Below, piece after piece: positions 20,723-43,695 of a stretch of DNA of 64,000 nt (position 1 is its first letter; the number at the start of each line of letters is the position of its first letter). Position numbers and translations under genes: made by a program. Source of the stretch: an uncultured Nitrososphaerales archaeon (GTDB lineage Archaea > Thermoproteota > Nitrososphaeria > Nitrososphaerales > Nitrososphaeraceae); contig CAVOHZ010000008.1 of assembly GCA_963695855.1 (NCBI GenBank), positions 1 to 64,000 of the forward strand, read 5' to 3'. The notes beneath the pieces are model-generated. The model did not search any database and was not told the DNA's origin. It saw only the letters and a list, made by a program, of their open reading frames with translations.

Positions 20723-20769
20723 TGGATATTAGAAACATGAAATAGTAAACCAGATCGAAACCAACAAAA

Positions 20770-21760: not shown

Positions 21761-21800
21761 ACATTAGACTCTTATTTTCGCACCGCTATCGATATTAATC
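21761..21800 (+). repeat. att-like motif, subfamily B (degenerate)
   Basis: ACATTAGACTCTTATTTTCGCACCGCTATCGATATTAATC matches the arm preceding attR. Confidence 0.8.
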
Positions 21801-21977
21801 ATGTCATAAAGATAATTTTCTTTAACTTATATTTTATTGATATTCTAAAAAATAGAAACTAAAATTATAATGATCTAATCCTTAGTAATCCTTATTGAAA
21901 AAATGTTCCTTAACAATTGCCTCTTGAGCATGTGAACTCAAATGAGTATTATTGATAAGTACCAAACTTACATATTC

Positions 21978-22181
21978 TTATATATATGTAGCACATGGAT
22001 ATTTGTATTCTTTTTGGAATTCCATGAATATAAAGTAATGACTTAGACTGGCAGAGTTGCACCATTTTGGTTTTTCGATAACAACGTCAACAACATTTTG
22101 TTCAACGAATGCTAAATCTATAAAAATAGATAATACTATGAATACAATAATCATTGGTATGAAAAATAATGATGGCTTCAC
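21978..22181 (-). CDS. Small membrane-anchored protein (paralog of 30596-30790)
   Basis: TM helix followed by KPKWCNSASLSHY..YPCATYI. Confidence 0.65.
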   Translation of the reverse strand: MKPSLFFIPMIIVFIVLSIFIDLAFVEQNVVDVVIEKPKWCNSASLSHYFIFMEFQKEYKYPCATYI

Positions 22182-22934
22182 TTCAATACTGTTAATTTAA
22201 AGATTATTAAATTTTCAAATTCCTTTTCTAAGCATGAGATAGCTACAAATGCATTAAATCCTCTTGTGTTTATTTATTGATTTTACACCAGAATTCGTAT
22301 GTATCATCTTGTTATATTAATAACTGAGAATATTCAAGGTCATGAAGAAACAAAAAGGAAAATCTGTTAATACCAAGACAAAGATTTCTGATAAAGGTAT
22401 CAGTACGAATAAAGACAATAGATCAACTGGAATAATAACAGGAAGGAATAGAATTGTCCAGAAAATGGTAGGAAAAGATATGATGAGGAAACAGCCTACA
22501 GGAAGTAGTAGAAAATTATGCGTGGGAATAACTATGGATAAAGAATTCCTTGACGGATACTTAGACAAGCATGCAGCTGAGTTGAAAATGTTAAGGAGCT
22601 GGCTTGCATATTCAATACTTAATGTACTATGGTTTACCAGTAGAACAAAACATAAAGAGACCATTTTGGACTTCTAAAAAATAATTTATCTATAAATAAC
22701 AAATTTACTCTAAGACTATTTAAGAAATTCAGAAAATATTAATAAAAAAAATATTATAAAAAATATTATGAATAACAGATAAAATAAACGGGAGAAAAAA
22801 CGGTTCAACATAAGTAATTTAAACATCAAATCTGTATTTAATTATATTTTTACATTTAGTAAATACTTCAATATTATTATAAGTTATCTTATCATTTCCA
22901 TTTACAAATCTTAAATAATATCTCTTTTACCATA

Positions 22935-22976
22935 ATATTAGACTTTTATTATTGCATGGATATCGGTGTTACTCTC
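22935..22976 (+). repeat. att-like motif, subfamily B (degenerate)
   Basis: ATATTAGACTTTTATTATTGCATGGATATCGGTGTTACTCTC. Confidence 0.7.
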
Positions 22977-23013
22977 TATATTCATTATGGTTGAAGATTT
23001 TATTTGCATTTAT

Positions 23014-23199
23014 CTAATTTTCTATGTTCTTGCCTTTCTTACTACTTAATATTATTGGAAAACCAAAAAGTAAAAGTAGTAAACCAATCATAGGAACAAA
23101 TATTCGAATGGAACTCTCTGTTATAGTTATAATTAACGGAATTACCAACATGACAGCACCTGACACCATAAAAATTATTCCTATCCTTCTCTGTTCCAA
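23014..23199 (-). CDS. Small two-TM membrane protein
   Basis: Two hydrophobic helices; only gene between two att-like motifs. Confidence 0.6.
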   Translation of the reverse strand: MEQRRIGIIFMVSGAVMLVIPLIITITESSIRIFVPMIGLLLLLFGFPIILSSKKGKNIEN

Positions 23200-23351
23200 T
23201 GAACTGCTTTATTCCACATGTTGTATAAAACAGTATTTCATATTTGATAGAAAAGAAAAAGAATTCTATTAAGATTTTTAGATGATTCTATCGAACCAAA
23301 TCCAGATTAGTCTATTATTGTACAATTATTTTACTTTCTAAGTTCCAAATG

Positions 23352-23404
23352 ATAAAAGCTAAATACAAGGTAGTAGAACCCTACTACATGGAGGGTTCAA
23401 TTCC
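23352..23404 (+). repeat. att-like motif, subfamily A
   Basis: ATAAAAGCTAAATACAAGGTAGTAGAACCCTACTACATGGAGGGTTCAATTCC. Confidence 0.85.
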
Positions 23405-23482
23405 AAATGATTACTAAGCAAATATGCCTCTATTTAGATCACTTTTATGTAAAATATATATGATAACTAATAATGTATTTTA

Positions 23483-24001
23483 AAAATTAATTATTAATAT
23501 TTAACAGCATCTTCCTGTTATTGACTAATTAAGATGAGTGACATTGATATTTGGCAAAAAGAGTTCTGGAATCGATTGAATCAACAAATGCAAGAAAATT
23601 TTAAAAAACAAATTGAACTTACACAAAAACAAATGGAACTTACAAGAACAGATAAAAGAACAAATGGAACTTACAAGAACAGATAAAAGAACAAATGGAA
23701 CTTACAGGAGAACTGGTAAAAAAACAATTGAACATGCAGAAGAACAGCCAAGAAGATCAGAAGAAGAAGCAAAAAGATTGATAGAAGTGGCTATGAGAAA
23801 TTCACAGGATTTCCTTAATCAACATAATCCAACATTAGCAATGATAGAATTTGAATGTGCAAGAATTTTAAGAAATTTCTTGAGAGAGTGAAATTTCCTT
23901 TTATTTTTATTAATTTAAAATAATTTATTATATATATAATAATATTAAAATAATTTAAACATAAATCTTTAATATTATCCTCTTTACCAACACATTAGAC
24001 T
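23483..24001 (+). pseudogene. Duplicate of 21213-21770 with frameshifted coiled-coil gene, ending in a truncated subfamily-B motif (ACATTAGACT)
   Basis: Near-identical sequence; indels within the repeat units. Confidence 0.85.
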
Positions 24002-24209
24002 ATAGTTTCTTGATAAAAATTATCAAGTAAAATCAGAACCTAATAACAGATTAGTAAATTTTAACTTGAAAACTATTTCCAATTAAATTTATAATATGAT
24101 ATTAATTTGAACTCTTTTTTCTTAATTTAGTAATTCTATAGTACTTACTAAAGTTACATAAATTGGGAACTATTATAACTAATTTTTAAATACGACCTCC
24201 TCAGACATA

Positions 24210-24902
24210 TTGTATAATATGCCTTTTGGCTCAGGCAGCAACAAAGAGGAAGAAAAACATAAAAAATATTCCCAATATATCAAAAAACCAGTTATAAATG
24301 AGAATGACTTAGACGAAGTTAATAAAATAAGGGAGATGTTAAATCCAGACGAAAAAGTATTACTTGTTGCAAGACAGTCAAAAATAAAGCCAGGAGGCTC
24401 TTATTTTACACCCAATACCATCTTTGCAACAGACAGAAGAATCATAATCCGCGACCCATATATGCTTGGGATAAAAGCAGATGTAGTGGATATCCCTTAC
24501 GATATAATTACAAGTTTAAAGCTTGAAAAAGGATTGCTATCATCTACAATAAGGTTTAAAGCTGCTGGATTAATGAGCTCAACCAAATTAGGGATGATGG
24601 ATAGCGTTACTGAAGGTGAAGATGATCAATCAGGTATAATCGAAGCTATTCCAAAAGACAAGGCAGAAGATTTGTTGGAAATAATTCGTTCAGGTAAGCA
24701 AGATAGCCGAAGAATAGCCCCTTCAAAAAAGCAAAAATCTCCTGAACCTGATGATCATAAAGAAGCTATAACTGCATCCAACCAATCGGTCTCAATTGCA
24801 GATGAATTACAGAAACTTGCAAACCTGAAAGAAGAAGGAGTATTAACTGAAGAAGAGTTTAATAAGATGAAACAAGATTTAATTAGAAATAATAAAAGAT
24901 AA
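24210..24902 (+). CDS. PH-like domain + C-terminal SHOCT protein
   Basis: LNPDEKVL..ATDRRII..IPYD.I; IADELQKLANLKEEGVLTEEEF..K..L. Confidence 0.85.
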   Translation: MYNMPFGSGSNKEEEKHKKYSQYIKKPVINENDLDEVNKIREMLNPDEKVLLVARQSKIKPGGSYFTPNTIFATDRRIIIRDPYMLGIKADVVDIPYDIITSLKLEKGLLSSTIRFKAAGLMSSTKLGMMDSVTEGEDDQSGIIEAIPKDKAEDLLEIIRSGKQDSRRIAPSKKQKSPEPDDHKEAITASNQSVSIADELQKLANLKEEGVLTEEEFNKMKQDLIRNNKR

Positions 24903-24985
24903 TATAATTTCTCATTTTGAGGATTATTATTTGCAAAAATTAAAGATACTTTACATTATGATAAATTAGATTAATAATAAACATT

Positions 24986-26020
24986 AGATCGTTTGCGTAA
25001 TTAGATAAAATCTATTATATATCTTGATGATGCCTTATATTGCTATCATCTTCTGTTGTGTATTATTCGATAATTTACTAAACCAGAAACAATATCTGAC
25101 ATTGTATCGTATCTTTTCAATCTGTTTCTGTATTTGTTTCCCATAATACTAAATTTCTTTATTCTACATATAGTATGTTCTACTATTACTCTCTGTCTAC
25201 GATGTCTTTTGTTGTACATTTTCTCTTTTTCTGTAAGGTCAATATTACGTTTCTTCTTTACAGGTAATACTGCTTTGATATCTGGAAAATCTTTTTCTAC
25301 TCCAATATAACCAAGATCAAAATAGTTTTTTACATCTTTTGGTGTTGTCGGATGAACATCTTTGTATACTGTATAGTCATGCTCTCTTCCTTCTTCATGG
25401 TTTGATTTATGTAATATTTCTCCTTTTTTGTTTACCATATACTGTGTCTTTACAGTATGTTTTTTCTTTTTTCCAGAATAGTACTCTTTTCTTCTTGTTT
25501 TGTCTGTAGGTACTGGAATTTCCTGTTCTGTTGAATCTATAAATGCTTTAAATCCTGGAAAATACAGTTCTACTTCATCTACTGTTCTTAATCTTCTTGT
25601 TACGTTGTATATTTTTTGAGGTAGTGGAATACAACTTTTTACTATAGGTTCCATATATCTTACATCTCTATGTACATTGCTCTGATCCAGATCAAACAAA
25701 AATCCTGTTAATGCATTGGTTATGTATAGTTTATAGTACACAAGAAGCATAACAAATCTATCTCTTGTTGTATGTTTGAAATGTCTTCCAGCTCCTAAAT
25801 TTCTTTTTCTCTTTCTTTTTGATAGACGTTTTATCTCATATTTTGGATATTTTGATTCTACTTGCTTACAAATAGAATCAAACTCAGATAATTCCAATCC
25901 TGTAAAGGATCTAAACAATAACGGTTTTTTAGATAAACTATCATAATTGAGCAAATTTATGAGAAATTAGTATAGAAATGAGGAATATAGCTGTAAGCTT
26001 TCTAATTATGCAATAGATCT
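24986..26020 (-). mobile_element. IS5-family (ISL2/HARBI-like) element, transposase 25046-25954
   Basis: IDSTEQ, YSGKKK.H, DLGY.G, R.IVEH.I.R.K. Imperfect TIRs AGATCGTTTGCGTAATTAGA / AGATCTATTGCATAATTAGA; 3-bp TSD ATT. Confidence 0.9.
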
Positions 26021-26099
26021 ATTTAATTAAATTTTATCATAATTGAATATTGAACAGTTAATTACTTGCTTCTTGTATTCTGAAAAAAGAAAAAGTTAG

Positions 26100-26572
26100 T
26101 AACAGCCTTCATAATAGATGAAACCTTTATCCAGGTTGACAGTCAGTATTTCTGGTTATGGATTTGTATTGAACCAATTGACAAATCTGTGCTTGGAATC
26201 TATATCTCAGAGGAGAGAAACATGATAGTTGCTGAAAAATTTATTCGATCTCTTGTATCAAAATATGGAAAACATGCCGTGTATACAGATAATGGAGGTA
26301 CATGGTATGATGAAGGATGTCATGTCTTGAGATTAAAATACTATCTACACTCACCATTTCAGAAAAGTATGATGGAAAGAGTCAATAAGTATTTCAAGGA
26401 CAGAATAGAAAGTTTTATGACTACTATCTTTGTATGCAAAAAGAGGGACGTAATCTATTTCAAGTACATAACTGGATACAATTCTTTGTTTCAATGTATA
26501 ATGACACTATAGCAAATAATAAGAATTATTTTTGGTTAAAGGAGGTGGATATTATCTTAAATTAACACAGCC
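26100..26572 (+). pseudogene. IS6-family transposase remnant with right TIR
   Basis: IIDET, YTDNGG.WY, ER...YFKDR; ends TTAACACAGCC. Confidence 0.8.
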
Positions 26573-26648
26573 AACTATTCATTGAAATTCAAACTATGTG
26601 CTTATCATTGATTTAGAAAAAATTGCATTTGTAATTATTTTTCACTTT

Positions 26649-28004
26649 TCACTTGTCATTTTTTTTATCTTTTATCTTCTCTTCTTTAACAATCTGAAAC
26701 TGGTCATATACATCTTCATCACCGTTATTGTCTATAAACGAACTTTTTAATATATTTCCGTTATTCTCTACAGAAATATTTACTATTCCAAATTCTCCGT
26801 CCAATCCAGAAGCAGAAAACTCCTTCTGTTCGGAAATCTTCATATCATGTGCTCCCCCAGTTCCAGCAGTTACAAAAACTGTTCCCCTTGGATTTTTATA
26901 AGATGTTTGGTCATGATCTTGAATCAATGGTTCAGCCTCATCATCATTATTAAAAGTGATGGGATATGATCTTTCATATGCATGAAAATGTCCCTGTAGG
27001 GCCAAAACCACATTATATTTATCAAACAATGGATGATATGTTTCTGTAAAATCATTCTCATCGTCTGGACCACCTCCGGAACTGTATGCTTGTCTATGGT
27101 AAAATGCGACAATCCAGTCAATTGTTCGATCTTTAGAATACTTTTCAAGATCCTTGATTGCAAATTCATATTGCTGTGATCCTTCTTCATATGGAACTTC
27201 TGTAGATAACGCTATGAAGTGGACATTTTTATAATTAAAAGAATAGTACTGTTTCTTCAATCCAAAATAATTCATATAATCTTTCAAAATTTTTGATGAA
27301 TCAACTTCATGGTTTCCAATCACGATTTTAGTTTTGTCTGATATAGGTTCTATTATGTTGAGCCAACACTTTGCTTTGCCATTATATGAAAGGTCTCCCA
27401 GTGCCAGTACAACTTCTGGTTCTTGTTCCAAGATGTTTTCAACCGTATCTTTAGTTTCAGAGTTACAGTCCCAGTCTCCTACAGCTACAAAATTGAAATC
27501 TGATTTGTGGTCAGACTTTTTTCCATTGATTGATTGTGACGCAAAAAATGTAGTTGTAGTTGTATTTGTTTCTGTTTTTGCTGTTGTGAATTTCACGTCA
27601 TCTTTTTGTTCTTTGTTATCCTGAGAAAGCCTACTTTTGTCAAATTCTGTTATTGACTTTGTATCATTTTTTACATTTTTGGTGTTAGCAATAGCATGAT
27701 TACTATTTTTTTCAATATTCTTGTTATCAATATTAGTATCTGATTGTTTTTCAGAATCAGTATCTTCTATGTAGTAAGACGGATCAAATACATAGTCGAA
27801 TGATTTCTCTTCATCATCATCACTTTCAACACCCATCTCAACTGCAAAAGCATTTCTGTTCTGAACGAAATGCGTATTCGTTAATTTGTCTTCTTCGTAA
27901 TCTAAATTTCTTTGAAGAAGTAGATTATTACTAAATAAAACTAATGAGAACAAAGCTATGACTGTAAGTAAATTAAGGATACTATTATGGAAACGAATCT
28001 TCAT
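26649..28004 (-). CDS. Exported metallophosphoesterase (purple acid phosphatase-like)
   Basis: GDW, GDLSY, GNHE, GHFHAYER; signal peptide. Confidence 0.9.
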   Translation of the reverse strand: MKIRFHNSILNLLTVIALFSLVLFSNNLLLQRNLDYEEDKLTNTHFVQNRNAFAVEMGVESDDDEEKSFDYVFDPSYYIEDTDSEKQSDTNIDNKNIEKNSNHAIANTKNVKNDTKSITEFDKSRLSQDNKEQKDDVKFTTAKTETNTTTTTFFASQSINGKKSDHKSDFNFVAVGDWDCNSETKDTVENILEQEPEVVLALGDLSYNGKAKCWLNIIEPISDKTKIVIGNHEVDSSKILKDYMNYFGLKKQYYSFNYKNVHFIALSTEVPYEEGSQQYEFAIKDLEKYSKDRTIDWIVAFYHRQAYSSGGGPDDENDFTETYHPLFDKYNVVLALQGHFHAYERSYPITFNNDDEAEPLIQDHDQTSYKNPRGTVFVTAGTGGAHDMKISEQKEFSASGLDGEFGIVNISVENNGNILKSSFIDNNGDEDVYDQFQIVKEEKIKDKKNDK

Positions 28005-28315
28005 ATGAATAGAAACCGATAAAATCTGTCACTTTTAACATTATTTCCATTATCTAATAGTACAAAGTATTGTACTCTTTTAATTAGTATTGTTACTTAT
28101 AAAAAGGTAAGAAGAAATTTTATACTAAACTTTTATGATACATTGTCATAATCTCATTCTTATCAGTTCCTTATATACAATATTTGTTTTGATAGTAAAG
28201 AGATTTTATTCTAAATACTTAATTCATACTGGAAATTTACTGAGCATTTTTTAGTAAAAATATTTATCAATTTTTAATAACGAAATTTGGAATCAAATAA
28301 AGTAATAGGGGGATA

Positions 28316-28740
28316 ATGGAAAAAATGTTAGAGAATAAAAGAGTCTTTTATATGTTGGTTGCAGGGTCATTCTCTGTATTTGGAACATCGGACCTGCCGT
28401 CAAATTCCCAATCTATCGAAGCACAGAAAGCAGAAGAAACATGTATTACATTTAATAAATTAGAGAATATAATTTCAGTAAATTGTGAATAAGCTACTTT
28501 TTCAGATATAACAGATCAGATAAAAGATAATAGTATTCTGGGTCTGGAGTCTGCCGAAAATGACAAAATTTGGATGATTCCTGCAGGAATAAATGTAGAA
28601 AAAGGATCTATTCCTGATATTAATTCAGATGATGTCTCCATACTTTTAGGAAATGCTGATGGTACATTTGGTACAGCAAACAACTTTGGAGCAGATAACT
28701 CACCATACTCTATTACTGTAGGGGAATTTGACGGATTATA
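28316..28740 (+). pseudogene. Chimeric remnant: N-terminus of an exported protein fused to an FG-GAP repeat fragment
   Basis: ..TCITFNKLENIISVNCE*ATF..DINSDDVS then ILLGNADGTFGTANNFGADNSPYSITVGEFDG. Confidence 0.5.
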
Positions 28741-28910
28741 AGCCTAAACTAAAAAACAATCTTTTTCTTTATTTTCGTGACTTGATCGATAGATCTTATT
28801 ATATCAACTCAAACATTTGGAAATTGGTAAAAAAAGAGGTTCAATATCTCTGCCTGATAAATCAATATTATTATTGTATGATTTTTGAATATATTAAAAT
28901 ACAATTAATA

Positions 28911-28967
28911 ATAAAAACTAAATACAAGGTAGTAGAACCCTACTACATGGAAGGCTCTACTCCCGAC
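28911..28967 (+). repeat. att-like motif, subfamily A
   Basis: ATAAAAACTAAATACAAGGTAGTAGAACCCTACTACATGGAAGGCTCTACTCCCGAC. Confidence 0.88.
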
Positions 28968-29351
28968 CAATTGTCTCAATCTGTAGATGAACCCTACTGT
29001 TAAAGACGTGAACCCGAATAGTAAAATTTTCAACATATATTTAGTAAAATAATAAAAATAATTTTAACATATTTAAATATATTTATGATGTGAACTAAAT
29101 ACGATACCAAGATACAGTACGTTATAAATATATTTGTCTTGTTTTTAAATTCTTTAAATTTGTATAGCAATAATATATTATACTTTAATCTAATTTGCAT
29201 CACATGGTCTGTACAATCTGTAGAATGAATTGTTGACAAAATTAAATTTCATAATTATTTCATGACATAATTTTGAAGTAAGACTTGAACATCTAATGGA
29301 AGTTTTGAGAAGTGAGTCAAGTAAAAATAATATTGACCACATTGATTCTGT

Positions 29352-29945
29352 TTATTTTACTGTGACTTTCCATGCTGGATGAATTTCATTCCATCCTTTT
29401 GGTTTATCTATAACCCAAGCTCCCCATACCTCTACATTGTCTCCCTTATCAGGTAATTCAACATACTTAGAATCTTGATCTTTAGGAACAATCTCTACAA
29501 CAAGATTTCCTCCTGTCTTTTTCTTATTATCTTTATTTAAAAGGGATTTGTATTCTTTTTCTAATTTCAGCAAGAATTTATAATCTCCATCAGGCATTTC
29601 TTGAACATGTTTTACCTTTCCTACCGCCTTTTCACATTCTGAAAGTATTTTTAAATCCTTTTTATTTGACGCACCTTTTAGGATCTTACTGGTTTTACAA
29701 TTATTATCATCAAGGTCTGACTCAGATTTTTCGTTCTTTGCAAATTCCACATTGATTTTGTTATTTTTATCTGTAGATGATTCTTGTTTCTGTTGTGATA
29801 CATTCTTCATATTCTTAGAGTCTTCATCTTCCGCAAAAGCATGATTTATTATTGATAATAACTCTGCTGATGTGTACCACGTTATTAGCGATCCTGTAAT
29901 TGAAATTACTAACATAAAGTATAATATATTTATGAATTTCTTCAC
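29352..29945 (-). CDS. Exported hypothetical protein (OB-fold-like, DGD..EIHP)
   Basis: Signal peptide, PDGDY, GD.VEVWGAWV, GWNEIHP. Confidence 0.7.
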   Translation of the reverse strand: MKKFINILYFMLVISITGSLITWYTSAELLSIINHAFAEDEDSKNMKNVSQQKQESSTDKNNKINVEFAKNEKSESDLDDNNCKTSKILKGASNKKDLKILSECEKAVGKVKHVQEMPDGDYKFLLKLEKEYKSLLNKDNKKKTGGNLVVEIVPKDQDSKYVELPDKGDNVEVWGAWVIDKPKGWNEIHPAWKVTVK

Positions 29946-30380
29946 AAGTGTTGAAAGTTAAATTCTAATTTAACGTTTATCCTTTTATCCTTCATAACAA
30001 AGTTATAGTTAATATTATGATAGGAAAATAATGAATTTTTTTCAAAGGAAACCTTTTGGTTTTCTAAAACAAATTCATTTACAATAACAAATAGTAAAAA
30101 AACTTGCGGATAAATCTGATAAAAGAATGGAGAAAAAGCTATGAAAAGAGATTCACTGTAAGATTTATTTAAGAAATTCAGAAAATATTAATAAAAAGAA
30201 TATTATAAAAAATATTATAAATAACAAATAAAATAATCGGGAGAAGAAACGATTCAACATTAGTAATTTAATTATCAAATCGGTATTTAATTATTTTTTT
30301 ACATTTAGTAAATGCTTCAACTTTATAAGTCGTATTATCATTTGTATTCACAAGTCTTAAATAATATCTCTTTTACTGTA

Positions 30381-30420
30381 ACATTTGACTCTTATTTTTG
30401 CACCGATATCGGTATTAATC
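30381..30420 (+). repeat. att-like motif, subfamily B
   Basis: ACATTTGACTCTTATTTTTGCACCGATATCGGTATTAATC. Confidence 0.8.
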
Positions 30421-30595
30421 ATGTCATAACCGTAATTTTTAACTCATATTTTATTGATATTCTAAAAAATAGAATACTAAAATTATAATGATCTAATCCT
30501 TAGTAATCCTTATTGAAAAAATGTTCCTTAACAATTGCTTCTTGTGTATGTGAACTCAAATGAGTTTTTTTGATAAGTACGAAAGTTACATATTC

Positions 30596-30790
30596 TTATA
30601 TATACGTAGCACATGGATATTTGTATTCTTTTTGGAATTCCATCAATAAATAGTAATGACTTAGACTGGCAGAGTTACACCATTTTGGTTTTTCTACAAC
30701 AAGAGTTTGTTCTGCGAATGTTAAACCTATAAAAATACATGATACCATGAATACAATAATCATTACTATGAAAAATAATGATGGTTTCAC
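30596..30790 (-). CDS. Small membrane-anchored protein (paralog of 21978-22181)
   Basis: Same KPKWCNSASLSHY motif. Confidence 0.65.
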   Translation of the reverse strand: MKPSLFFIVMIIVFMVSCIFIGLTFAEQTLVVEKPKWCNSASLSHYYLLMEFQKEYKYPCATYI

Positions 30791-30927
30791 TTCAATATTG
30801 TTAATCTAAAGATTATTATAAATTTTCAAATTGCTTTTCTAAGTATGAGATAGCTACAAATGCAATAAATCCTGTTGTGTTTATTTCTTGATTTTACAAT
30901 TTATTTTATAATATTAATCAATTTACC

Positions 30928-30985
30928 AAAAAGCTAAATAGGATGTAGTAGTAGAACGCTACTACATGGAGGGCACTACTCCCGA
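30928..30985 (+). repeat. att-like motif, subfamily A
   Basis: AAAAAGCTAAATAGGATGTAGTAGTAGAACGCTACTACATGGAGGGCACTACTCCCGA. Confidence 0.85.
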
Positions 30986-34920: not shown

Positions 34921-35065
34921 AATGATACGTATTTTAAATTATTATTTATTAGTTTTGAGTAATATATGGATAATCAGAAATTGAAAACAAAGGCTATATA
35001 TTTAAAGTTACATGATAATAACTAAATATCAAATAAAATTTTAAATATTTTCATTGTATCACAAA

Positions 35066-35104
35066 ATTGGACTCCTTTTTTCGCATCACTATCGGTATTA
35101 CTCC
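35066..35104 (+). repeat. att-like motif, subfamily B (degenerate)
   Basis: ATTGGACTCCTTTTTTCGCATCACTATCGGTATTACTCC. Confidence 0.75.
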
Positions 35105-35156
35105 AAATGAAGTGAAACATTCACAAAATTTTAAATTGATTGAATCTATTTTATTA

Positions 35157-36029
35157 TCATTTATTACTTTTGATATAATTCTTAATAAACCACAATAAAA
35201 AATGATTCCATTCATCTTTAGTTTGTGATCTTTCTAATGAATTGTAATAGCTATTTCTTCCTTCATATGGAATATTAAACATAGGATATCCACTTTTATT
35301 TAAAACAAAATTCATCATTAACCTTGATATTCTACCATTTCCATCGCCGAATGGATGAATAGTTACAAATTTTAGATGAACAAATGCTGCTAATTCAATA
35401 GGATGCAACTTTTCTTTTTTATTATACCATTTAAAAAACTCTATTAGTAATGGGTAAATTTCTACTGGTAATGGAGGAATAAACTTGCTACCTGAAATTC
35501 CAACTTTGTGTTTTCTTATATTCCCAGAAATATCTGGTTTTGTATCCTGAAAGAGAACTTTATGCCATTCTAAGATTGCACTATATGATAAATCTTTTTT
35601 ATATTTTAATATTTTATAAAATAATTTTTTATGAGATTCTGCTTCTTTAATATCTTCAATAGGTTTATCTTTTGGAGTAATTCCTTTCTCCAATAAATTT
35701 GCAGTATCTCTTAATGATAATGTTGAACCTTCTATTCTTTGGGTATCATAAGTAAATCTGGTAGCAAATAATACTATTGATTTTTCTTTAATAGATCTTG
35801 GCATATTTTTGATTTCTTTATTGTAATTATTTTTTATGAGTTCAATAGAATCATACAATTCTTTGTAAGATTCTCTAAATATTTTGATCTTTAATTCATC
35901 TATATTTTTAGGTATTTGTTTCCCAATGTATTTTTCTCTATATTCTACTCTACCTGCTTTTCTTATTGTTTGTTGAAGATAATAGTATACATTACCTTTA
36001 TTGTCCTTTTTTTTCTTTATTGATACCAT
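35157..36029 (-). CDS. Fic-domain protein
   Basis: HPFGDGNGRISR; TQRIEGSTL inhibitory-helix-like motif. Confidence 0.93.
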   Translation of the reverse strand: MVSIKKKKDNKGNVYYYLQQTIRKAGRVEYREKYIGKQIPKNIDELKIKIFRESYKELYDSIELIKNNYNKEIKNMPRSIKEKSIVLFATRFTYDTQRIEGSTLSLRDTANLLEKGITPKDKPIEDIKEAESHKKLFYKILKYKKDLSYSAILEWHKVLFQDTKPDISGNIRKHKVGISGSKFIPPLPVEIYPLLIEFFKWYNKKEKLHPIELAAFVHLKFVTIHPFGDGNGRISRLMMNFVLNKSGYPMFNIPYEGRNSYYNSLERSQTKDEWNHFLLWFIKNYIKSNK

Positions 36030-36036
36030 GCAAACT

Positions 36037-36088
36037 ATACCCTTACAAATTGATATTTAAATATAATAATATTAAAATGTAAGGGTAT
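36037..36088. promoter_or_regulatory. 11-bp perfect inverted repeat around the fic promoter
   Basis: ATACCCTTACA (36037-36047) and TGTAAGGGTAT (36078-36088) flank a TTTAAATA box. Confidence 0.65.
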
Positions 36089-36124
36089 TCAATTGTTTGA
36101 ATAATTAATTTTATGAATGTTACC

Positions 36125-36175
36125 ATAAAAGCTAAATACATGGTAGTTGAACCCTACTACATGCAGGTTTTACTT
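36125..36175 (+). repeat. att-like motif, subfamily A (core decayed)
   Basis: ATAAAAGCTAAATACATGGTAGTTGAACCCTACTACATGCAGGTTTTACTT. Confidence 0.82.
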
Positions 36176-36313
36176 TATTTCAAATAAATTTTGGTCAAAT
36201 CTGATAACTTTTCATTATAAATTTTAGTGAACAGCCATTATAAGATACCTTTGGAATTATGGGTTATTATACACATATTTATACTACTAAATATCCTAGA
36301 TGTCATTTTTTTG

Positions 36314-36616
36314 TTAAACCTTATAATATTTAGGTTTTGGTCCGACTTCTGACAGAAGTGTCTTAAAAATACTCTTATTATTGTCTATCTTAGTGATACA
36401 TACTTTGATATAATGCGGTGCTTCACCATGAGCGCAAGAATGAGCAATATCTCCCTCAATCTCATTACACCACACGTAAGCATGAAGGAAATATTGTGGA
36501 GCTTTGGCCTGAACACCACCAGAATAATTATCCCAATGCAGCTTTCTTAATTTAGAACTTTCTACTTCTGCAATCCTCCAATCATTCCACTTACGTCTTA
36601 CGGATATTTTTTCCAA
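36314..36616 (-). CDS. Hypothetical protein, possibly His/Cys metal-binding
   Basis: HWD..GG..AP..LHAYVWC..HSCAHG.PH.IKVC. Confidence 0.7.
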   Translation of the reverse strand: MEKISVRRKWNDWRIAEVESSKLRKLHWDNYSGGVQAKAPQYFLHAYVWCNEIEGDIAHSCAHGEAPHYIKVCITKIDNNKSIFKTLLSEVGPKPKYYKV

Positions 36617-37671
36617 ACCAATTAAAATTAATAAGTCACGTATTTTAATTTATTTAATTTAGTATGTTAAAATTATCTTGTACTTTAAAGTAATATTTAA
36701 TCTCTCTTGTACTGATTTACGTGACCACATTTGGGGAACCGGTGGACTCCATGTATCAAAAGTTTCTGCAATTAAACCAATTTTAGGCCCTGAGATTTCA
36801 GGTATACCTTCATAAGATGGTCCTTCATAATTACATATAGTGTCCAATTAATTAATCGTAAAAGCCTCCTTTGTTTCACCAGATGCAAGCTTTGATTTAA
36901 TTTCGTCATTGTTATTATTGGTAATTATTTTTAATTTTGGTTTCTGGTCTTTAATATGCAATTTGTCTATTTTGCTTTCACCTTTGATAATGTAATCAAT
37001 ACTTCCAGTGACGAAGCATACTGTTTCTTCAATAAGCAATGGGTATACTATATTTCTTAACTCTAAATGTTCTAAAGAGTGATGTAATATAATTTCTAAA
37101 TATAGTTTCTAGTGGTTTAAAAAATATCTAAAACCACCCATTTATGGAGTACATTTTAAAATACCTATTAATTAAAACAAAATTAACAATTATCTGTATA
37201 ATAATATTAAAGATGCATTTGTAATTATATAATATTTTTAACAAATTTTAAAGAATTTGTAAAATCTTGTTAAGATTAATATATAACTACAAAAGCTCAG
37301 CTTAAATCTGTATATGAGACTTAATACAAAAAAATCTAAATTTATATCAACAGCAACAACAAAAACCAGTGGACAATCCAGCAGAAGACAAAGGCCCTAT
37401 TCCAGTTGTATCAATTCAACAAGAACATAAAGATGAAACAGAAGAAGAGGATAACAACGAACGAAAACAACAAGAAGAACAACAATGAAGACGATTCAGA
37501 TTCAGGGGAGTGAATAAAGAAGAAATGACAACAGTATATACAACAATTTGTATAAGATGCAGAAAGGAGTTTATCGAACAAACGGGAAAGGTTTGCATCT
37601 ATTGTAGTGGATTGGTTTGTCCTTTTTGTTTTAATAACCACATGGAAGAGAGACATAAGGGATGGCTATAA

Positions 37672-38082
37672 TCAAGGTAGACGCTTTAATTGGGTTTTAC
37701 ATTTCTCACAAAAATTAAATTCTTTATTATTTGGATAACGACAATTCCAACATATAACAAAGTCGACATTTTTAAAAATACGTTGTTTGGCTTTCTCTTC
37801 TAAGGCAGCCAATTCATCTTGATTATTTGAATATATATTATTAAGTACTGTCCTTACTATTGATGCAATAAAAAACATCCCATCTGGCTGTGCTTCTAAT
37901 CTTGTTTTTTGATTCACATTGTCATAACTAACTCCAAATTCTATTTTCAATGGAAGGACATTCTTATCTAAATCCTGATATACGTCTCGACGTATATCCT
38001 CAAATCTTGTCATACATTCCAAAAAAATTGTGTATTCTAATGGGTATTTCTGTTTAAAATATTCTAATGGGTCGTAACTCAT
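37672..38082 (-). CDS. Hypothetical protein with C-terminal zinc ribbon
   Basis: CWNC..N...FCEKC. Confidence 0.65.
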   Translation of the reverse strand: MSYDPLEYFKQKYPLEYTIFLECMTRFEDIRRDVYQDLDKNVLPLKIEFGVSYDNVNQKTRLEAQPDGMFFIASIVRTVLNNIYSNNQDELAALEEKAKQRIFKNVDFVICWNCRYPNNKEFNFCEKCKTQLKRLP

Positions 38083-38184
38083 TCATTTGATATTCTGATA
38101 ATATCAATTAAACTTTCACCCACTTTTCAACACCCAAATACAACACCCGAAGATTCAACAGAACCAGATTTTTCAATTTCTATC

Positions 38185-38521
38185 ATTTAAAGGAATTCAA
38201 CCAACAATTAAGGTAAGAAAGAATTCTAGATGTAGAAAGACTAACCATTATTTGAGAAACAAGAACGTACAATTACATAAAACCAATCTACAACAATGGA
38301 AGGATAGTGTAGACGATGGACAAAGATGGATTGTAGAAACAGTATTTTCCTGCATTAAGAGAATGTTTGGAGAATATGTTACTGCTATCAGATTTGAGAA
38401 CATGATAAAAGAGATGATATTAAAAGCATCATTGTATAACTGGTTTCAAAGTATAACTGTTACATAATTTACATTAGTAACAAAAAATAGATGATTATCT
38501 AAATGAGTTACGCAACAGACC
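38185..38521 (+). pseudogene. IS5-family transposase 3' remnant with TIR
   Basis: RWIVETVFSCIKRMFGE; end AGTTACGCAACAGACC. Confidence 0.8.
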
Positions 38522-38760
38522 AAAAATATGTATAAGTGTTTTTTGTAATTCCGAACATAGCCAATATATTTTTTAGTTTATTCAAACAATTATGATTTTA
38601 AAACAAATGTCGTATAATAGATTCAATCTAAGACCAATTTGTTCAATTTTCCAGTTATTGTTGAACAAATCAGATTCATAGAGTATGACATTCCATTCTT
38701 TTTTTTAAACCTTTTGAATTTGAAATATTCAATAGTCAAATAATATCATGATACTATTAA

Positions 38761-38822
38761 TAAAAGTTAAATACAAGGTAATAGAATCTCTACATTAGAC
38801 TCTTATTTTTCGCCTCTATCGT
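38761..38822 (+). repeat. att-like motif, subfamily B (A/B hybrid start, core lost)
   Basis: TAAAAGTTAAATACAAGGTAATAGAATCTCTACATTAGACTCTTATTTTTCGCCTCTATCG. Confidence 0.8.
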
Positions 38823-38989
38823 ATATCTTAATAAAATTCTAATACTCATTTTTTTTATTTTTTGACGATGGGTGTTAGAGGCTACCATAACACCCGCTCG
38901 GAGCAAGAAAGAATAGAGGAGTAGCAACTAATATTAAACCTGAATGAATAAAAATTTTGATTAAGAAGATTCGGAATTATGTTAGAGAA

Positions 38990-39182
38990 ATATCCTACCT
39001 TTTTACATTCATTCATCTTTTCGAATTCAGTATCCCAGTTATCTATAACGTCAAAACCAAATAATACCTCGCCACGTTTAACAAGAGATTCATTGTACTT
39101 CTTGCCGTTCACATGTATATCATGACTAGGATATAGGTTATATAGCTAAATGTGTTAGGAATAGTAAGTTAGGCAACAAAGC
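38990..39182 (-). pseudogene. IS5-family transposase 5' remnant with TIR
   Basis: YNESLVKRGEVL..DNWD.E..KMN; end GCTTTGTTGCCTAACT. Confidence 0.7.
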
Positions 39183-39199
39183 ATTTATTATTCTTAAAA

Positions 39200-39601
39200 G
39201 TGATACTAAATAATATGTCTAATGGTACTAGTCCAAAAAGTTCTTCTAAAAAGCCTACTAAAAATATCACAACAGCGAAGGAAGTAAAAGAAACAAAATC
39301 AGTTCCTATAACCGTACAATTAAACATACTTAAAGTTCTGCTAAATGACCGTTCTCTTATTCCATTATTGAGAATACTAAAAAAGAACAAAGAGTTGCAC
39401 ACAAGAGAATTACTTAGCAATATAGGAAGTTGGGGATATGGACAATCCTTAATGAAAAGAGCCACAAATTTAGGTTTGATTGAAAGAAAAGTAAAGAAAG
39501 AAAAATCTCCTGGGCGAGGTAAACCAAGGATTTATAATTCTTTAACAAATAAGGGTAGAGAAGTAATAGGATTAGCTGATAAAGTCGTATACACAAAGTA
39601 A
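39200..39601 (+). CDS. Winged-HTH transcriptional regulator
   Basis: LGLIER...GRG.PR.Y.SLT.KG. Confidence 0.75.
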   Translation: MILNNMSNGTSPKSSSKKPTKNITTAKEVKETKSVPITVQLNILKVLLNDRSLIPLLRILKKNKELHTRELLSNIGSWGYGQSLMKRATNLGLIERKVKKEKSPGRGKPRIYNSLTNKGREVIGLADKVVYTK

Positions 39602-39977
39602 TTGTTTGGAAAAAACCTCTTATTTAGTATAACGTTACTAGTATTTGAACAAACTTTAGCCATAAGTAGATAAGAATTTTTGTTGTCTGATAGTAACTAA
39701 TAGTATCGAAGTTACTTCAAATATTAATCACTTTATAATGGTTTAAATGTATTAAGTTTTTTATCCTCTCCATAATGTATAACTATTGTAAGTCATGTGA
39801 ATATTAGGTAAGATGAATAGCTACGCTAAAATCATCCCCTGACGTTCACTATTCTGAAAGATTTAAAGAACTAAAATTAGCCATACATACCTTAAGTAAT
39901 GTTATCTAGGTCTAAACTTCTATCTTAAATTTCACATATTTCATTTTCAAAAATAATTAAAAATTAAGTTTCTAATG

Positions 39978-40051
39978 ATAAAAGCTAAATAGCAGGTTGT
40001 AGTATCTCTACATTAGACTCTTATTTTAGCACCGCTATAGGTGTTACTCCC
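39978..40051 (+). repeat. att-like motif, subfamily B (near full length)
   Basis: ATAAAAGCTAAATAGCAGGTTGTAGTATCTCTACATTAGACTCTTATTTTAGCACCGCTATAGGTGTTACTCCC. Confidence 0.88.
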
Positions 40052-40108
40052 CTACTTGCCTTGTCATATCAGTTTTTACATTTTGATACATTTTTACTTT
40101 TGAGGAGG

Positions 40109-40477
40109 TTATGAAAATATTTTGCTACGTCTTGAGATTATATTAATGGCTAAATAAGAAAGAGGAGAAGCAGCTATAGAAGATAATATTGCTGATTCAA
40201 AAGGTCTGAATCCTATTAGTAATAGTTCATATAGTATTATCCATCGTGATATATTATTAACAATATCAAAGATAGACCACGTAAATATCATCTTCTTTAT
40301 TATTTGTTTGAGGCGATTAAAATTAATCTCGCTACAAAATCGATTAGTATATTTTCGTTTATTATCGATATGAAAAAGTGCTATAAAAGATACCTTATAA
40401 ATTATAAATCCTCCAATCACTGTTATCGTAGAAGTAAATATGGTATTAGGAGAATATATTTTTGTACCTTTAATCAT
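40109..40477 (-). CDS. Membrane protein (possibly 5'-truncated)
   Basis: Several hydrophobic helices. Confidence 0.55.
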   Translation of the reverse strand: MIKGTKIYSPNTIFTSTITVIGGFIIYKVSFIALFHIDNKRKYTNRFCSEINFNRLKQIIKKMIFTWSIFDIVNNISRWIILYELLLIGFRPFESAILSSIAASPLSYLAINIISRRSKIFS

Positions 40478-41939
40478 ACCACGGTAAGATAAAAAATGGT
40501 TCGTTTCAATTGTAAACTATATAGCAAATGATTTAATAATATAAATGTCAGGTCTAGGACAATTAAAAAATGAAGAGTCTACTTATTAATTGGTCCTTTT
40601 TCTGAGCTTTTTCTCGACTCATCATACATACTACCCAGTTGTTTTCTTTTTATCGTCTTTACTATCTTTTTTCTTTTTTCTAAATCTAGAAAATAGTCCC
40701 ATAAAATTATAAAAGTGGGTTTCAGATAGATAAAGATATCTAGGATAACCTAGGGATAAGACAGTATAGAATATAGATGTTATAATAAAATAAATAAATC
40801 ACACTAGTAGTAAAAAAGATTTACAAATATAATCTAAATACCAAATAAAATCAATATAGATATACAACATTTACCACAACCATGCTTTAAAATAACAAAA
40901 ACCAACAGGTATTATGGAAAAAGAGGAAAGGGATAAATCGCTTTTTGGTGATATTGCATCTGAGTTAAAAATTCAAGATGAAATAGAATCCTATGATAAT
41001 ATCATGGAACAACGCCCAAAATACAAGGTATGGTATAATTTATGTTTGGCATTGGATTCAATAGGATATCAAGAATAAACCTAAAGTATTATAATAAATA
41101 TATAACGTGGTAGTTATACAATTATTAATGTTTCTCATACCAATTATTTTCATTTTTTATCAATAGATTAAAAAATATTAAAAGTATTGGTTAAGGTATT
41201 GTACTGATTTAATTTTTTAGTTATGACGTAGTTACTGTCTTTTCTATTTGTTTTGTATAAGAAATACTTTTTCATTCACACTTGCTATTGTCATTTGAAT
41301 GGATGTATCATTCAATTCCTTTTGTTTTTTTAAGAGGTACTTTGCTCCTCTTTTTTTAAAAATCTTATTTAATTTTTTGGATAGTTTATATAGTTCGTAA
41401 AAAGATTTACTATTTTGTTTTGCTGAAGGAGAAATATCCTCATTTGAAGAAGTATCAAAAGGGGGCATATGTCAATGTTCCATCTGGCTGAAGTTTTGGA
41501 TTTGGAATAGCTTTTTGTCTATCAAATTCTACCTTACTTGTTATTGATGGAGAATATATTTAAGGACCATTATTATTTCCACTAGAAGATTTTTTTCGTT
41601 ACTCGCTTTGTTTTTGCCAATAGTCACATACTATACATATACACTCTAATATTTAATAGTTTGATACAATTAAATTGTTATAGCTGGGTGGTCATTATTC
41701 TTTGTAAGCTTCGAATCTCATGCGATTGATATATTTAGGACATTTATATAATATATCCCATACTTATATAGTATTTTTACCAATTTTTTGTAATTTAGTT
41801 ATTATTTTTACCTTAAACAATAAGGAAAGTTTGAAATATTTTACTTTCATAGTATGTGAAGTTATAAAGATTGACCACTTTTTTATGTATATTAATAGTT
41901 TATCTACACCCTTATTTACCTCTCTTCATATGCTAAAAA

Positions 41940-42479
41940 ATGTATGTTAATATGATGTCAACTAAAAAACAAGATAGAAAAGATGATAGTGAGGATTCAA
42001 TCGAAATTCATTCACAAACTGCAGAACAATTTCAACGAGAACAACAACAAACAGTTAACGAAGTAATAGATGAAACTAAAGATAATATCAAAAAAACAAT
42101 AGATGAAGCAAGAAGAGAGATTCCACGTTATACACAAATAGTTAATGATTTTCAGGAAAATAATATTCAGGCTATTAGAGAAATTACGGATAATTTTGTA
42201 GATTCTCAAAAAGATATTCTAAATAATTCATTACGCCTCTGGTCTGAGTGGACAGTTTCTCCAAGACAATTTGCTGAAAACTATGGAAAAATAGTTAGTA
42301 GTATTGCAGATAATACAGTTGCGGCAAGTAGAGTAATAAATAACACTGTATTTGCAAATCTAGATTCTGTCAATACATCTGTCAAGCACACCAAAGATAC
42401 TGTAAATGAACTATCAAAAATAGGAACCAATGTTGTTAAAACAGTTCAACAAGTTTCAAGACGCCAGTTAAAGCAATAA
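41940..42479 (+). CDS. Helical apolipoprotein/phasin-like hypothetical protein
   Basis: Amphipathic helices (DETKDNI..TIDEARREIPRYTQ). Confidence 0.7.
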   Translation: MYVNMMSTKKQDRKDDSEDSIEIHSQTAEQFQREQQQTVNEVIDETKDNIKKTIDEARREIPRYTQIVNDFQENNIQAIREITDNFVDSQKDILNNSLRLWSEWTVSPRQFAENYGKIVSSIADNTVAASRVINNTVFANLDSVNTSVKHTKDTVNELSKIGTNVVKTVQQVSRRQLKQ

Positions 42480-42837
42480 TAAGAAGAAACTCGAATTACT
42501 AACAACAACAATAAAATAAATAATAAGACAAAGAGTATCTATTTAGAGTAACATAAAATACTATAATCTCTTTTTTTTACATTTATTAATCTAGGTCATT
42601 GAACATAAGTATTAAGATAATGATGTTAGGTTTTTTACCAACACTGATGAGAGGCAAGCTGTTGAAAATTGACTTCAATATGTATAAAAATATATTAGAT
42701 GTACAATTTAAAAGTGTGATTCAATCAGTTAAATTATTTTTGCTAATTTTCTTTTTCCTTTATTCATAGATAATACAAATAGATAATTAAACTAAATATA
42801 TCTATATCAAATAGTTCCAATACTGTATAGAAATTGA

Positions 42838-43215
42838 AAACAATTTATTATTTTAACTATAGGTTTATCAATAATCATAATAATAGGTTTATTTTTTATT
42901 TTAAAAGAACAAGATAAAAAACCATACTCATTAGAAATTGACGCTATTAAAGATAAAACCGATATTTCAGGTACTATGTACAGAGTCAAAGCAACCAATA
43001 CAGGAACCAATCCTCTTACAGAACTAAAAGTAAATTTGGGAAAAGGCGATATTCAAAACATGGATTTACTGGAATCAGGACAATCATTTTTCTTTTATCC
43101 TAAACCAGACACTAATACAATTATTGTAAAAGTTACAACTAGCGAGAGAATAGAAAAAGAGAGTAATTGCCGTTCTCCATTAAAAGGATTAGGATTACCA
43201 GGGAGTGGCAGATAA
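42838..43215 (+). CDS. Small membrane-anchored hypothetical protein (start uncertain)
   Basis: In-frame TM helix upstream of the listed ATG; the stop codon abuts the next att-like motif. Confidence 0.5.
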   Translation, partial: KQFIILTIGLSIIIIIGLFFILKEQDKKPYSLEIDAIKDKTDISGTMYRVKATNTGTNPLTELKVNLGKGDIQNMDLLESGQSFFFYPKPDTNTIIVKVTTSERIEKESNCRSPLKGLGLPGSGR

Positions 43216-43255
43216 TAAAAGCTAAATACTATGTATTAGAACCCTACTACATGGA
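43214..43255 (+). repeat. att-like motif, subfamily A (truncated)
   Basis: ATAAAAGCTAAATACTATGTATTAGAACCCTACTACATGGA. Confidence 0.82.
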
Positions 43256-43368
43256 CAATTGCAAGACCAAATGATAGCTCTTTCAAGAATATTATTATTT
43301 CAAATGTTATGCATTAGTTTCTAACATTTCTAAAAAACTCTTATTAATTATATTGATAGAATAAGCTC

Positions 43369-43551
43369 ATGTTTCAACACCATGATGAACATGAATTCAA
43401 AAAAATTATCGATGAATTTATTCTATCTTCATCAAATAATGAAACAATAAAAAATATAGATTTTGAAGCATACAAATTCGGAATTTCTTTTTATAAAATG
43501 ATGTTCATATTAATCCAAAAAGATGCTCTCCATAATAGAAAATCTCAGTAA
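43369..43551 (+). CDS. Small hypothetical protein
   Basis: 60-aa ORF, only gene between two motifs. Confidence 0.5.
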   Translation: MFQHHDEHEFKKIIDEFILSSSNNETIKNIDFEAYKFGISFYKMMFILIQKDALHNRKSQ

Positions 43552-43610
43552 GATAAATGACAAACTATTAAACGGATTTTGATTTTTATATTTTAATTAA
43601 GTTTCTAATA

Positions 43611-43695
43611 ATAAAAGCTAAATACAGGATACTACTATCTTTACATTGGACTCCCTTTTTAGAACCGCTATCGGTGTTACTCCCGACGGGCCCGT
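43611..43695 (+). repeat. attR: subfamily-B arm plus intact 17-bp core
   Basis: ATAAAAGCTAAATACAGG..TACATTGGACTCCCTTTTTAGAACCGCTATCGGTGTT-ACTCCCGACGGGCCCGT. Confidence 0.92.

Follow-up and report, generated by a model that had tools for sequence, protein, structure and literature searches.

Tandem accretion has been described for the islands of streptococci, in which integrative and conjugative elements (ICEs) of the ICESt1 type as well as integrative and mobilizable elements (IMEs) are found together with cis-mobilizable elements (CIMEs), which are integrase-less residents (PMC5704250). According to the accessible sections of that paper, integration is site-specific, its target being either a tRNA gene (at the 3' end) or the attR of a resident element, and the residents decay to co-oriented, integrase-less modules that keep their att sites and offer complex possibilities of excision. 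A similar arrangement was found at positions 21761-43695 of the stretch of DNA analysed here (the window), which comprises nucleotides 1-64000 of contig C8 from the genome of an ammonia-oxidising archaeon (G000; 3.55 Mb, 11 contigs, approximately 31% G+C). This region, an array of modules separated by att-type sites, was probably produced by tandem accretion of integrative elements targeting tRNA-Lys and of derivatives of these without an integrase, with site-specific recombination at the att core shuffling them. In the initial annotation, it had been called an undescribed, integron-like cassette system. Neither term was retained: the array resembles known tandem accretion, displaced 3' ends were found behind other tRNA genes too, and the sites had no attC ends and no hairpin compensation, while many modules were multi-gene and the genes had no orientation bias. 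Unlike the streptococcal tandems, this array belongs to an archaeal host with very divergent integrases and is known from sequence alone; its modules are shorter (0.1-8 kb) and more numerous (13 sites in 22 kb and 87 per genome), and many of the sites retain the left half of att only.

The ssrA islands of Dehalococcoides, as presented in the available part of PMC3146451, comprise more than a dozen direct repeats of the 3' end of a single small-RNA gene, located downstream of that gene, and 15 islands without an integration module. Like the present array, they have a conserved motif just upstream of each repeat, which does not align with the gene, and form a strain-variable region with accessory genes. 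They use a serine recombinase (DsiB), are phage-sized and have all repeats within 100 kb of ssrA, whereas the present array is associated with integrases predicted to be of the tyrosine type, has relatives far from the tRNA gene, and shows a left arm of 45-87 nt and often a sharp break at the core. For elements of Thaumarchaeota, the portion of PMC6563490 drawn on here gives tRNA genes as the main targets and att sites with a median length of 17 bp, down to 8 bp; tandem integration and re-use of att sites are reported there for archaeal elements with tyrosine recombinases, in the form of pairs, in contrast to the dense arrays of integrase-less modules found here. The words 'Nitrosocosmicus' and 'tRNA-Lys' have no occurrences in the text of PMC6563490. 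Integrons have been reported in Archaea too (10.1101/2022.02.06.479319 / PMC9668308, partial text). With them, this locus shares co-oriented modules separated by sites, a putative tyrosine recombinase at one end, a fixed crossover and a complete last site, whereas an IntI-type integrase, an attI beside the integrase and the attC structure and end motifs are absent here, genes lie in both orientations, and modules often contain several genes. Literature searches, with the supplementary att-site lists of thaumarchaeal elements outside their scope, returned no description of this site family. Unusual in it are the density, the number of copies throughout the genus, the length of the left arm, which is derived from the tRNA, and the excess of left half-sites without right halves.

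The island starts at a tRNA-Lys(UUU) gene at 2734-2821 on the + strand (Rfam RF00005, 56.8 bits), which is single-copy in G000 and contains a 15-nt intron that causes ARAGORN to miscall it. The last 16 nt of this gene, ACTCCCGACGGGCCCG (2806-2821, +), form the att core at attL. Because an exact copy of these 16 nt recurs as a direct repeat at the distal boundary, at 43679-43694, the insertion behind tRNA-Lys measures 41 kb, and the region 21761-43695 makes up its distal half. The distal copy belongs to a complete B-type site (43598-43710, +; nhmmer 107.4 bits) with the flank TACTTTTCTAGGGACCACC. In agreement with the initial annotation, in which the most distal site was considered the true attR, this site serves as distal attR for the entire 41-kb island. 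The sequence past its core resembles that found right after tRNA-Lys in three related genomes (G017, G010 and G036); the last site of the window thus carries the flank seen behind unoccupied tRNA-Lys genes.

A gene for a predicted integrase of divergent tyrosine-recombinase type (2892-4238, +; 448 aa) starts 70 nt past the tRNA gene. Its product matched PF00589 with E=5.6e-4, which is under the gathering cut-off. In an NCBIfam scan (E<=1), it gave 20.6 bits with XerA (cut-off 220), 14.6 with XerC and 11.4 with a generic tyrosine recombinase model; no NCBIfam model reached its cut-off, integron-integrase models included. Initially, no IntI-type insertion had been recognised in the integrase. 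It had 1692 database homologues, many of which were called integrase or XerD by their sources; the organism labels of the homologues were Nitrososphaeraceae or Candidatus Nitrosocosmicus. Sequence and profile searches of the PDB returned no recombinase, and an AlphaFold2 model based on 22 sequences had a mean predicted local distance difference test (pLDDT) score of 63, with values below 50 at residues 172-254 and 290-329, in the catalytic half. The integrases are predicted from these similarities to be divergent Xer-like recombinases.

The leader ATAAAAGCTAAATAC was matched 18 times in the window when up to three mismatches were allowed, compared with 9.99 expected, and none of 100 shuffles reached 18; with at most one mismatch, there were seven matches, all on the + strand, from 23352 to 43625. 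Sites were then defined by nhmmer profiles constructed from the window's own copies, with a genome-wide cut-off of E<=0.01. About 14 co-oriented att-like sites had been listed initially, and 13 of these were recovered, all on the + strand between 21758 and 43710: 21758-21804, 22908-22976, 23339-23440, 28906-28995, 30378-30438, 30929-31013, 34005-34089, 35042-35105, 36121-36170, 38750-38821, 39965-40053, 43205-43260 and 43598-43710. The fourteenth, at 23992, is a 10-nt ACATTAGACT remnant within a segmental duplication (21206-21770 and 23476-24001). The initial interpretation of these motifs as att-type junctions was supported; they consist of a right arm plus the 3' core of tRNA-Lys.

Two types of site were distinguished. 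In type A, the leader is followed by a 7-bp hairpin (GTAGTAGAACCCTACTAC), then by CATGGAGG and finally by the core; GTAGTAGAACCCTACTACATGGAGG lies between leader and core. Type B consists of the leader or a CTTAAATA box, followed by ACATTAGACTCTTATTTTTGCACCGCTATCGGTGTT and the core, and the alignment of its body with the tRNA starts at the anticodon stem and covers the 3' half; tRNA-Lys(CUU) as the origin of this body was ruled out on reading that gene. The left arm runs over 45-87 nt. A core copy at 34057-34072 matches at 14 of 16 positions, and core remnants are present at 28964, 30983, 34062 and 40051. At three sites (23394-23415, 35100-35110 and 43262-43275), AAATGA follows and replaces the right half of the core. 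An Rfam search of the whole window (E<=1) detected two tRNAs only and nothing at the sites; a structured RNA was rejected, with neither an Rfam family nor hairpin covariation at the sites. A further B-type site lies inverted outside the island (45332-45435, - strand; nhmmer 74.7 bits), with a break between ACTCCCGACG and TAGGAAGACA, and the identical junction occurs at C8 201760.

The profile scan of this and related genomes that had been suggested in the initial annotation gave 87 sites in G000, clustered and mostly co-oriented. Approximately 35 of them lie at 177-315 kb of C8, 12 at 913-949 kb of C10 and 7 at 68-83 kb of C3, with more on C2 and C6. The density in the array (13 in 22 kb vs 87 in 3.55 Mb) is approximately 24-fold higher than that genome-wide. 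A 113-nt B-site query found matches in all 18 genomes of the same genus and in none of 12 genomes from other genera of the order. Many of the matches stop at query positions 85-87, the last C of ACTCCC, and others reach 110-113, taking in GACGGGCCCG and TACTTTTCTAGGG. In the relative G012, 16 co-oriented sites extend over 29.6 kb, and none of three integrase families and no tRNA-Lys(UUU) was found within the 73 kb examined around them. The possibility had been raised that the motif is scattered over the genome independently of integrases; this proved partly true. The related genomes, one per species, are mostly fragmented, which limits the comparison of synteny. In many of the 19 relatives having the gene, tRNA-Lys lies at or near a contig end, which fits a repeat-rich downstream region. 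In G000 itself, a tRNA is cut by the contig start (window 1-65, - strand; Rfam 32.1 bits), and at the other end of C8 (approximately 601302) the tRNA-Lys core is followed by an GCAAATATGCC arm; therefore, both ends of C8 lie at tRNA or att sequences.

In G000, the core was found 28 times when up to two mismatches were allowed. One of these copies is the tRNA gene, 24 lie behind A or B arms and 2 behind an arm of a third type; the remaining copy is a further tRNA-like end. Past the core, the right arm TTATGTATTCGGGTTCATATACA leads into an integrase gene at the tRNA, at C8 291622 and at C8 177074; other conserved right arms directly past the core are TGCTGATATAAGTGCTAAAAT, GCAAATATGCCTCTATTTA and TACTTTTCTAGGGTTCACC, and the integrase-side arms occur only behind a core. 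The tRNA-Lys loci of 12 relatives were compared. Two carry the integrase arm with an integrase of the window's family, three a second arm with a 432-aa integrase, two a third arm with a 406-aa integrase, and three an 'empty-like' flank of the TACTTTTCT type; one carries another sequence and one is at a contig end. Considering that different combinations of arm and integrase occur behind tRNA-Lys in the relatives, it may be concluded that tRNA-Lys is the attB of several related element families and that an A or B arm plus core is their attR-type junction.

The piling up of displaced 3' ends behind tRNA genes is a general phenomenon in G000. When the 3' 16-mers of 36 tRNAs were searched for exact copies, 10 were found for tRNA-Lys(UUU), 9 for a tRNA at C8 91508, 4 for tRNA-Arg(tcg), 3 for tRNA-Val(tac) and 1-2 for the others; every 5' end had one copy. 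The tRNA at C8 91508-91603 (ARAGORN 'tRNA-???') has 21 displaced 3' ends with at most one mismatch. These form a mostly co-oriented array at 91-172 kb of C8 (91508-172066) with a spacing of 3.5-25 kb, two types of left arm and several of right arm; integrases belonging to the 406/432-aa family sit at 98768, 107545 and 155828. Half-sites with a fixed position were found in this second family too, many left arms retaining just AATCCCAC of the core, followed by unrelated sequence or AGAAYCC. A left arm related to this array is present in the window at 53578 on the - strand. A copy of the tRNA-Val(tac) 3' end (one mismatch), preceded by GGGTTCAA, was seen just outside the island at 44170-44185, inside a module (43780-44360) that is repeated at C8 195876-195288 (92%) and at 1689 kb of C10.

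To describe the breakpoints, 85 analysable sites of G000 were classified. A full core was present in 26 of them and a decayed core in 7, and 18 ended earlier; the remaining 34 lose similarity 0-5 nt past ACTCCC, 17 of them exactly there. Breaks of synteny and homology coincided with the sites, as had been expected. In the relative G035, a module resembling K11 of the window (89.9%) is joined via a single A site to one resembling K13 (96.8%), and the 5.5-kb module K12, which lies between them in the window, is absent. A copy of the Fic module (35063-36163) with 95.5% identity is present in L024, a contig from a soil metagenome. Its neighbours there differ on both sides: upstream lie a B site of the leader type and a module related to one on C10, and downstream a complete A site and a module related to one on C6. 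The first bases of the Fic module, GAAGTGAAAC, follow ..ACTCCAAAT in the window and ..ACTCCCGAC in L024, the joint being at the same nucleotide in both. Among 29 metagenome loci with Fic relatives, sites were present at L024 and at another contig, L025, only; the other 27 loci, with at most 67% protein identity, were left out of the further analysis. Matches of relatives to 28900-38150 and 20000-24950 repeatedly stop within a few bases of the crossovers. Thus, homology blocks end at sites, and modules have been exchanged at the core. The inter-site segments in G000 (n=52) are 111-7933 nt long and often contain several genes; for 8 of the 52, in approximately five families, a full-length paralogue exists in the genome.

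The modules of the window illustrate this mosaic. The conserved right-end module of the tRNA-proximal element (20209-21802, +) ends in the B-type site 21758-21804, in which the core is replaced (..ATTAATCAT followed directly by GTCATAAAG). Copies with 81-86% identity and the same end point are present at C10 940649-942148 and C10 911910-913426, and the G014 copy covers query positions 558-1801. At the next B-type site (22908-22976, +; nhmmer 24.6 bits), family homology stops at ..ACTCTC, before TATATTC. Module K11 (22977-23415, +), approximately 430 nt with one small open reading frame (ORF), follows and ends in the A-type site 23339-23440. Both of its paralogues (approximately 91%) start precisely where the crossover was predicted and terminate at A sites of their own; their flanks are unrelated, and the B sites upstream of them are more diverged. 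In place of the tRNA core, the K11 site has at 23394 a 20-nt alternative core, TTCAATTCCAAATGATTACT, of equal length, for which no other copy was found in G000.

Module K12 (23416-28964, +) is 5.5 kb long and ends in the A site 28906-28995. It begins with an integrase-side arm of 50 nt but lacks the integrase itself. Also present are a coiled-coil gene that is duplicated and carries the 23992 remnant, a gene of the bPH/SHOCT type, an insertion sequence (IS; 24973-26043), an approximately 490-bp repeat and a metallophosphatase gene. The same GCAAATATGCCTCTATTTA arm lies directly behind tRNA-Lys in G033 and G035, in which it precedes a 406-aa integrase (G033) or a contig-cut homologue of it with 79% identity over 145 aa (G035). 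Judging from this arm, K12 is visibly a decayed element of a probably integrase-bearing kind. Module K13 (28965-30422, +), with ORFs of 197 and 69 aa, ends in the B-type site 30378-30438; its 96.8% identity in G035 extends over 1500 nt. Module K14 (30423-30983, +) ends in the A-type site 30929-31013 with the core ACTCCCGAA and is an 89% paralogue of 21727-22287; matches in relatives stop at query positions 2069-2086, the crossover being at 2084. Module K15 (30984-34062, +) contains three genes and ends in the A-type site 34005-34089, whose decayed full core is the copy at 34057-34072. Module K16 (34063-35105, +; 228-aa ORF) ends in the B-type site 35042-35105; in G017 a different tRNA-like site lies upstream of it, and in L025 it is contiguous with K17.

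Module K17 (35106-36178, +) ends in the truncated A-type site 36121-36170 and carries the Fic-domain gene on the - strand (35157-36029; Pfam Fic E=5e-23; PADLOC SoFic/PDC-S04); copies in G035 and G017 have 85-87% identity. Farther on, a B-type site with leader is cut off before the core (38750-38821, +; 49.4 bits), and another (39965-40053, +; 90.6 bits) breaks between ..ACTCCC and CTACTTGCC. The latter junction is kept together with the downstream 122-aa gene in the eight matches listed, from eight other genomes of the genus. An A-type site at 43205-43260 (+; 39.0 bits) is truncated past ..CATGGAC, and an identical junction occurs at C6 226400. The multi-copy blocks 39150-39900, 40110-40460 and 41949-42460 were rejected as modules; their ends are gene boundaries of paralogous families and not sites. 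Two more segmental duplications connect 21727-22287 with 30349-30898 and 22690-22974 with 30139-30420.

It had been stated initially that no interval holds an integrase, and a search of 20000-46000 with three integrase families and a profile found no remnant (best E=0.034). Regarding the genes in the intervals, their occurrence in either orientation was confirmed, the inter-site ORFs of at least 60 aa in G000 (n=146) being divided into 71 with the same and 75 with the opposite orientation (p=0.80), whereas single-gene content did not hold, many modules being multi-gene. Cassettes of one gene in one orientation, as in integrons, are therefore not what the array contains. Between the integrase and the first site (21758) there are 17.5 kb of cargo, with no adjacent attI. 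For attC-like ends (RYYYAAC...GTTRRRY, the consensus being taken from the text of the initial annotation), two pairs were found compared with a mean of 4.3 in 100 Markov resamples. These two are one locus (39076-39174) on both strands, and none lies at a site; the earlier remark that the sites do not look like attC is thus correct, and attC identity was rejected. Across 35 copies of the type A 7-bp hairpin, one double change was seen, and 0.873 of cells were paired, the mean in shuffles being 0.875.

The tRNA-proximal cargo (4249-20200; Pfam, PADLOC) includes the element's own RadA-like gene for a RadA/Rad51-family ATPase (6774-7673), an ApeA HEPN gene (8028-9224), a type I restriction-modification (R-M) system (11610-17503), a paralogue of the TATA-binding protein (TBP; 17731-18294), and also methyltransferase and YgjP genes. 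Seven perfect 18-nt tandem repeats (19382-19546) lie in the ORF 19200-20015, which has a weak proteasome-like N-terminus, and 33-nt repeats of approximately 11 residues each are present in the ORF 21264-21548 (21301-21519) and in its duplicated copy (23571-23752). The window contains four IS copies (DDE_3, DDE_Tnp_4, IS110-type and IS1595-type) at 1151-2326, 24973-26043, 48394-49907 and 49937-50865; because copies of them with 99-100% identity exist elsewhere in the genome, their transposition was recent. The approximately 490-bp dispersed repeat in K12 (26085-26572) has more than 50 genome copies at 65-89% identity and a 107-aa ORF without a Pfam match. The dispersed repeats 38158-38525 and 38988-39183 have approximately 30 copies each in G000, often together; elsewhere they are approximately 460 nt apart in reversed relative order, as if flanking something.

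The explanation that we consider probable involves a superfamily of integrative elements in the genus with divergent tyrosine integrases, comprising at least two families. Their attP would consist of a conserved left arm (type A or B, in part a diverged copy of the 3' half of the tRNA), the 3' core of tRNA-Lys and an arm on the integrase side. Integration into the tRNA gene or into a resident core copy would leave an attR-type junction of left arm and core, and the 13 co-oriented sites would be such junctions. The tRNA-proximal element (2.8-21.8 kb) would have kept its integrase, whereas the outer modules would have lost theirs and would behave like cis-mobilizable remnants. Recombination within or just past ACTCCCGAC would delete, insert and swap modules, with the result that adjacent modules would differ in history and many sites would retain the left half only. 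The anatomy and copy numbers of the sites, the breaks at the core, the presence or absence of a module and the lack of integron features are observations; we infer that the integrases catalyse these events, and likewise the direction (insertion or deletion) of each. The initial annotation had offered right-end scars of sibling elements as an alternative, and this fits better than cassettes, with the addition that modules have been exchanged at the core.

Several observations weigh against tandem accretion. Some arrays are remote from tRNA-Lys and from any integrase (29.6 kb in G012; 913-949 kb of C10 in G000). There are 34 orphan left half-sites vs 0 orphan right halves, and this counts against simple accretion since it predicts orphan right halves as often as left ones; the excess may be due to core-initiated deletion running rightwards into pseudo-sites, or to half-site cassettes mobilised in trans. 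The spacing of 0.1-5 kb is far under normal element sizes, and none of the intervals has an integrase remnant. At 21802, where the intact element has its first attR candidate, the core is lacking, and the alternative core at 23394 is unexplained. The assignment of the integrase depends on sub-threshold profile matches and source names, and its structure model is poor in the catalytic half. Finally, no module copy with at least 98% identity was found in a different context in G000, whereas IS copies reach 99-100%; the activity is therefore not shown as current.

Part of this evidence could be accommodated by a dedicated system analogous to integrons, in which integrase-less half-site modules (left arm plus ACTCCCGAC) are excised as circles and inserted singly, in trans, at any resident site by element-borne integrases. 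Such modules would account for the sharp break shared by 34 of the 85 sites, for the lack of orphan right halves and for the absence of integrase remnants, and the position of the sole complete core at the distal end is as expected if each insert brings a left half only. The exact boundaries of K11 and of the Fic module in different contexts, and the tens of copies in each of the 18 genomes of the genus searched, are consistent with it too, as is the finding that 20 of 24 listed soil metagenome runs contain 14-36%, and none half, of the words sampled from 28965-38000, which would fit modules that travel separately but is a measure of word content only. However, gene orientation is unbiased, modules of 0.1-8 kb are in many cases multi-gene, few segments have full-length paralogues (8 of 52), the hairpin has no compensatory changes, and an attC signature is absent. 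By eye, the K11 site looks more diverged in a triple alignment than the approximately 91% identical body; K12 appears to be a decayed integrase-bearing element, other copies of module K21 have no preceding site, and several multi-copy blocks are paralogous coding regions. This system is therefore considered unlikely, and it is equally doubtful that a tRNA-built gene-capture system with approximately 90 sites per genome reshuffles accessory and defence genes (Fic, ApeA, R-M and genes of unknown function).

It is quite improbable that the sites are inert scars, that is, neutral relics made into a mosaic by homologous recombination between 60-110-nt repeats, segmental duplication and random deletion. 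The three segmental duplications in the window, the saturation of the region with IS and other dispersed repeats, the uncompensated hairpin substitutions and the lack of near-identical module copies in new contexts in G000 agree with this, but random deletion fails to explain 34 of 85 breaks within a 6-nt window or the joining of the same module to different site variants at the same nucleotide. Moreover, joints between a left arm and unrelated DNA are beyond homologous recombination, and the second tRNA family has the same fixed-position half-sites. Lastly, a tRNA-derived unit independent of integrases could be imagined, comparable to a miniature inverted-repeat transposable element (MITE) or a regulatory repeat, whose leader, resembling a B recognition element (BRE) and TATA box, would carry a promoter and could drive a short tRNA-half-like RNA or outward transcription. 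An A/T-rich box (GCTAAATA or CTTAAATA) does lie 17-18 nt from ACATTAGAC in both B variants, the copy number is high across the genus, and arrays without integrases exist. Nevertheless, the copies are clustered and co-oriented and not dispersed, no terminal inverted repeats or target duplications are evident by eye in aligned copies, and the unit has the exact 3' end of the tRNA as its terminus and, where copies are complete, lies directly beside integrase genes. Neither an Rfam family nor compensatory changes indicate a structured RNA at the sites, and this explanation is very improbable.

With tandem accretion as the preferred explanation, this family provides a natural experiment on archaeal tyrosine integrases that use very short cores. 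The sharp half-sites without reciprocals point to recombination that accepts a partner lacking the right half of an att site; if this is confirmed, the distance between accretion islands and integrons would be smaller than commonly supposed. Since modules of the array carry candidate defence genes, such arrays would act like a defence island, with lineages exchanging its parts. The family would also explain much of the strain-level variation in gene content, and of the assembly fragmentation, in this ecologically important genus of soil nitrifiers.

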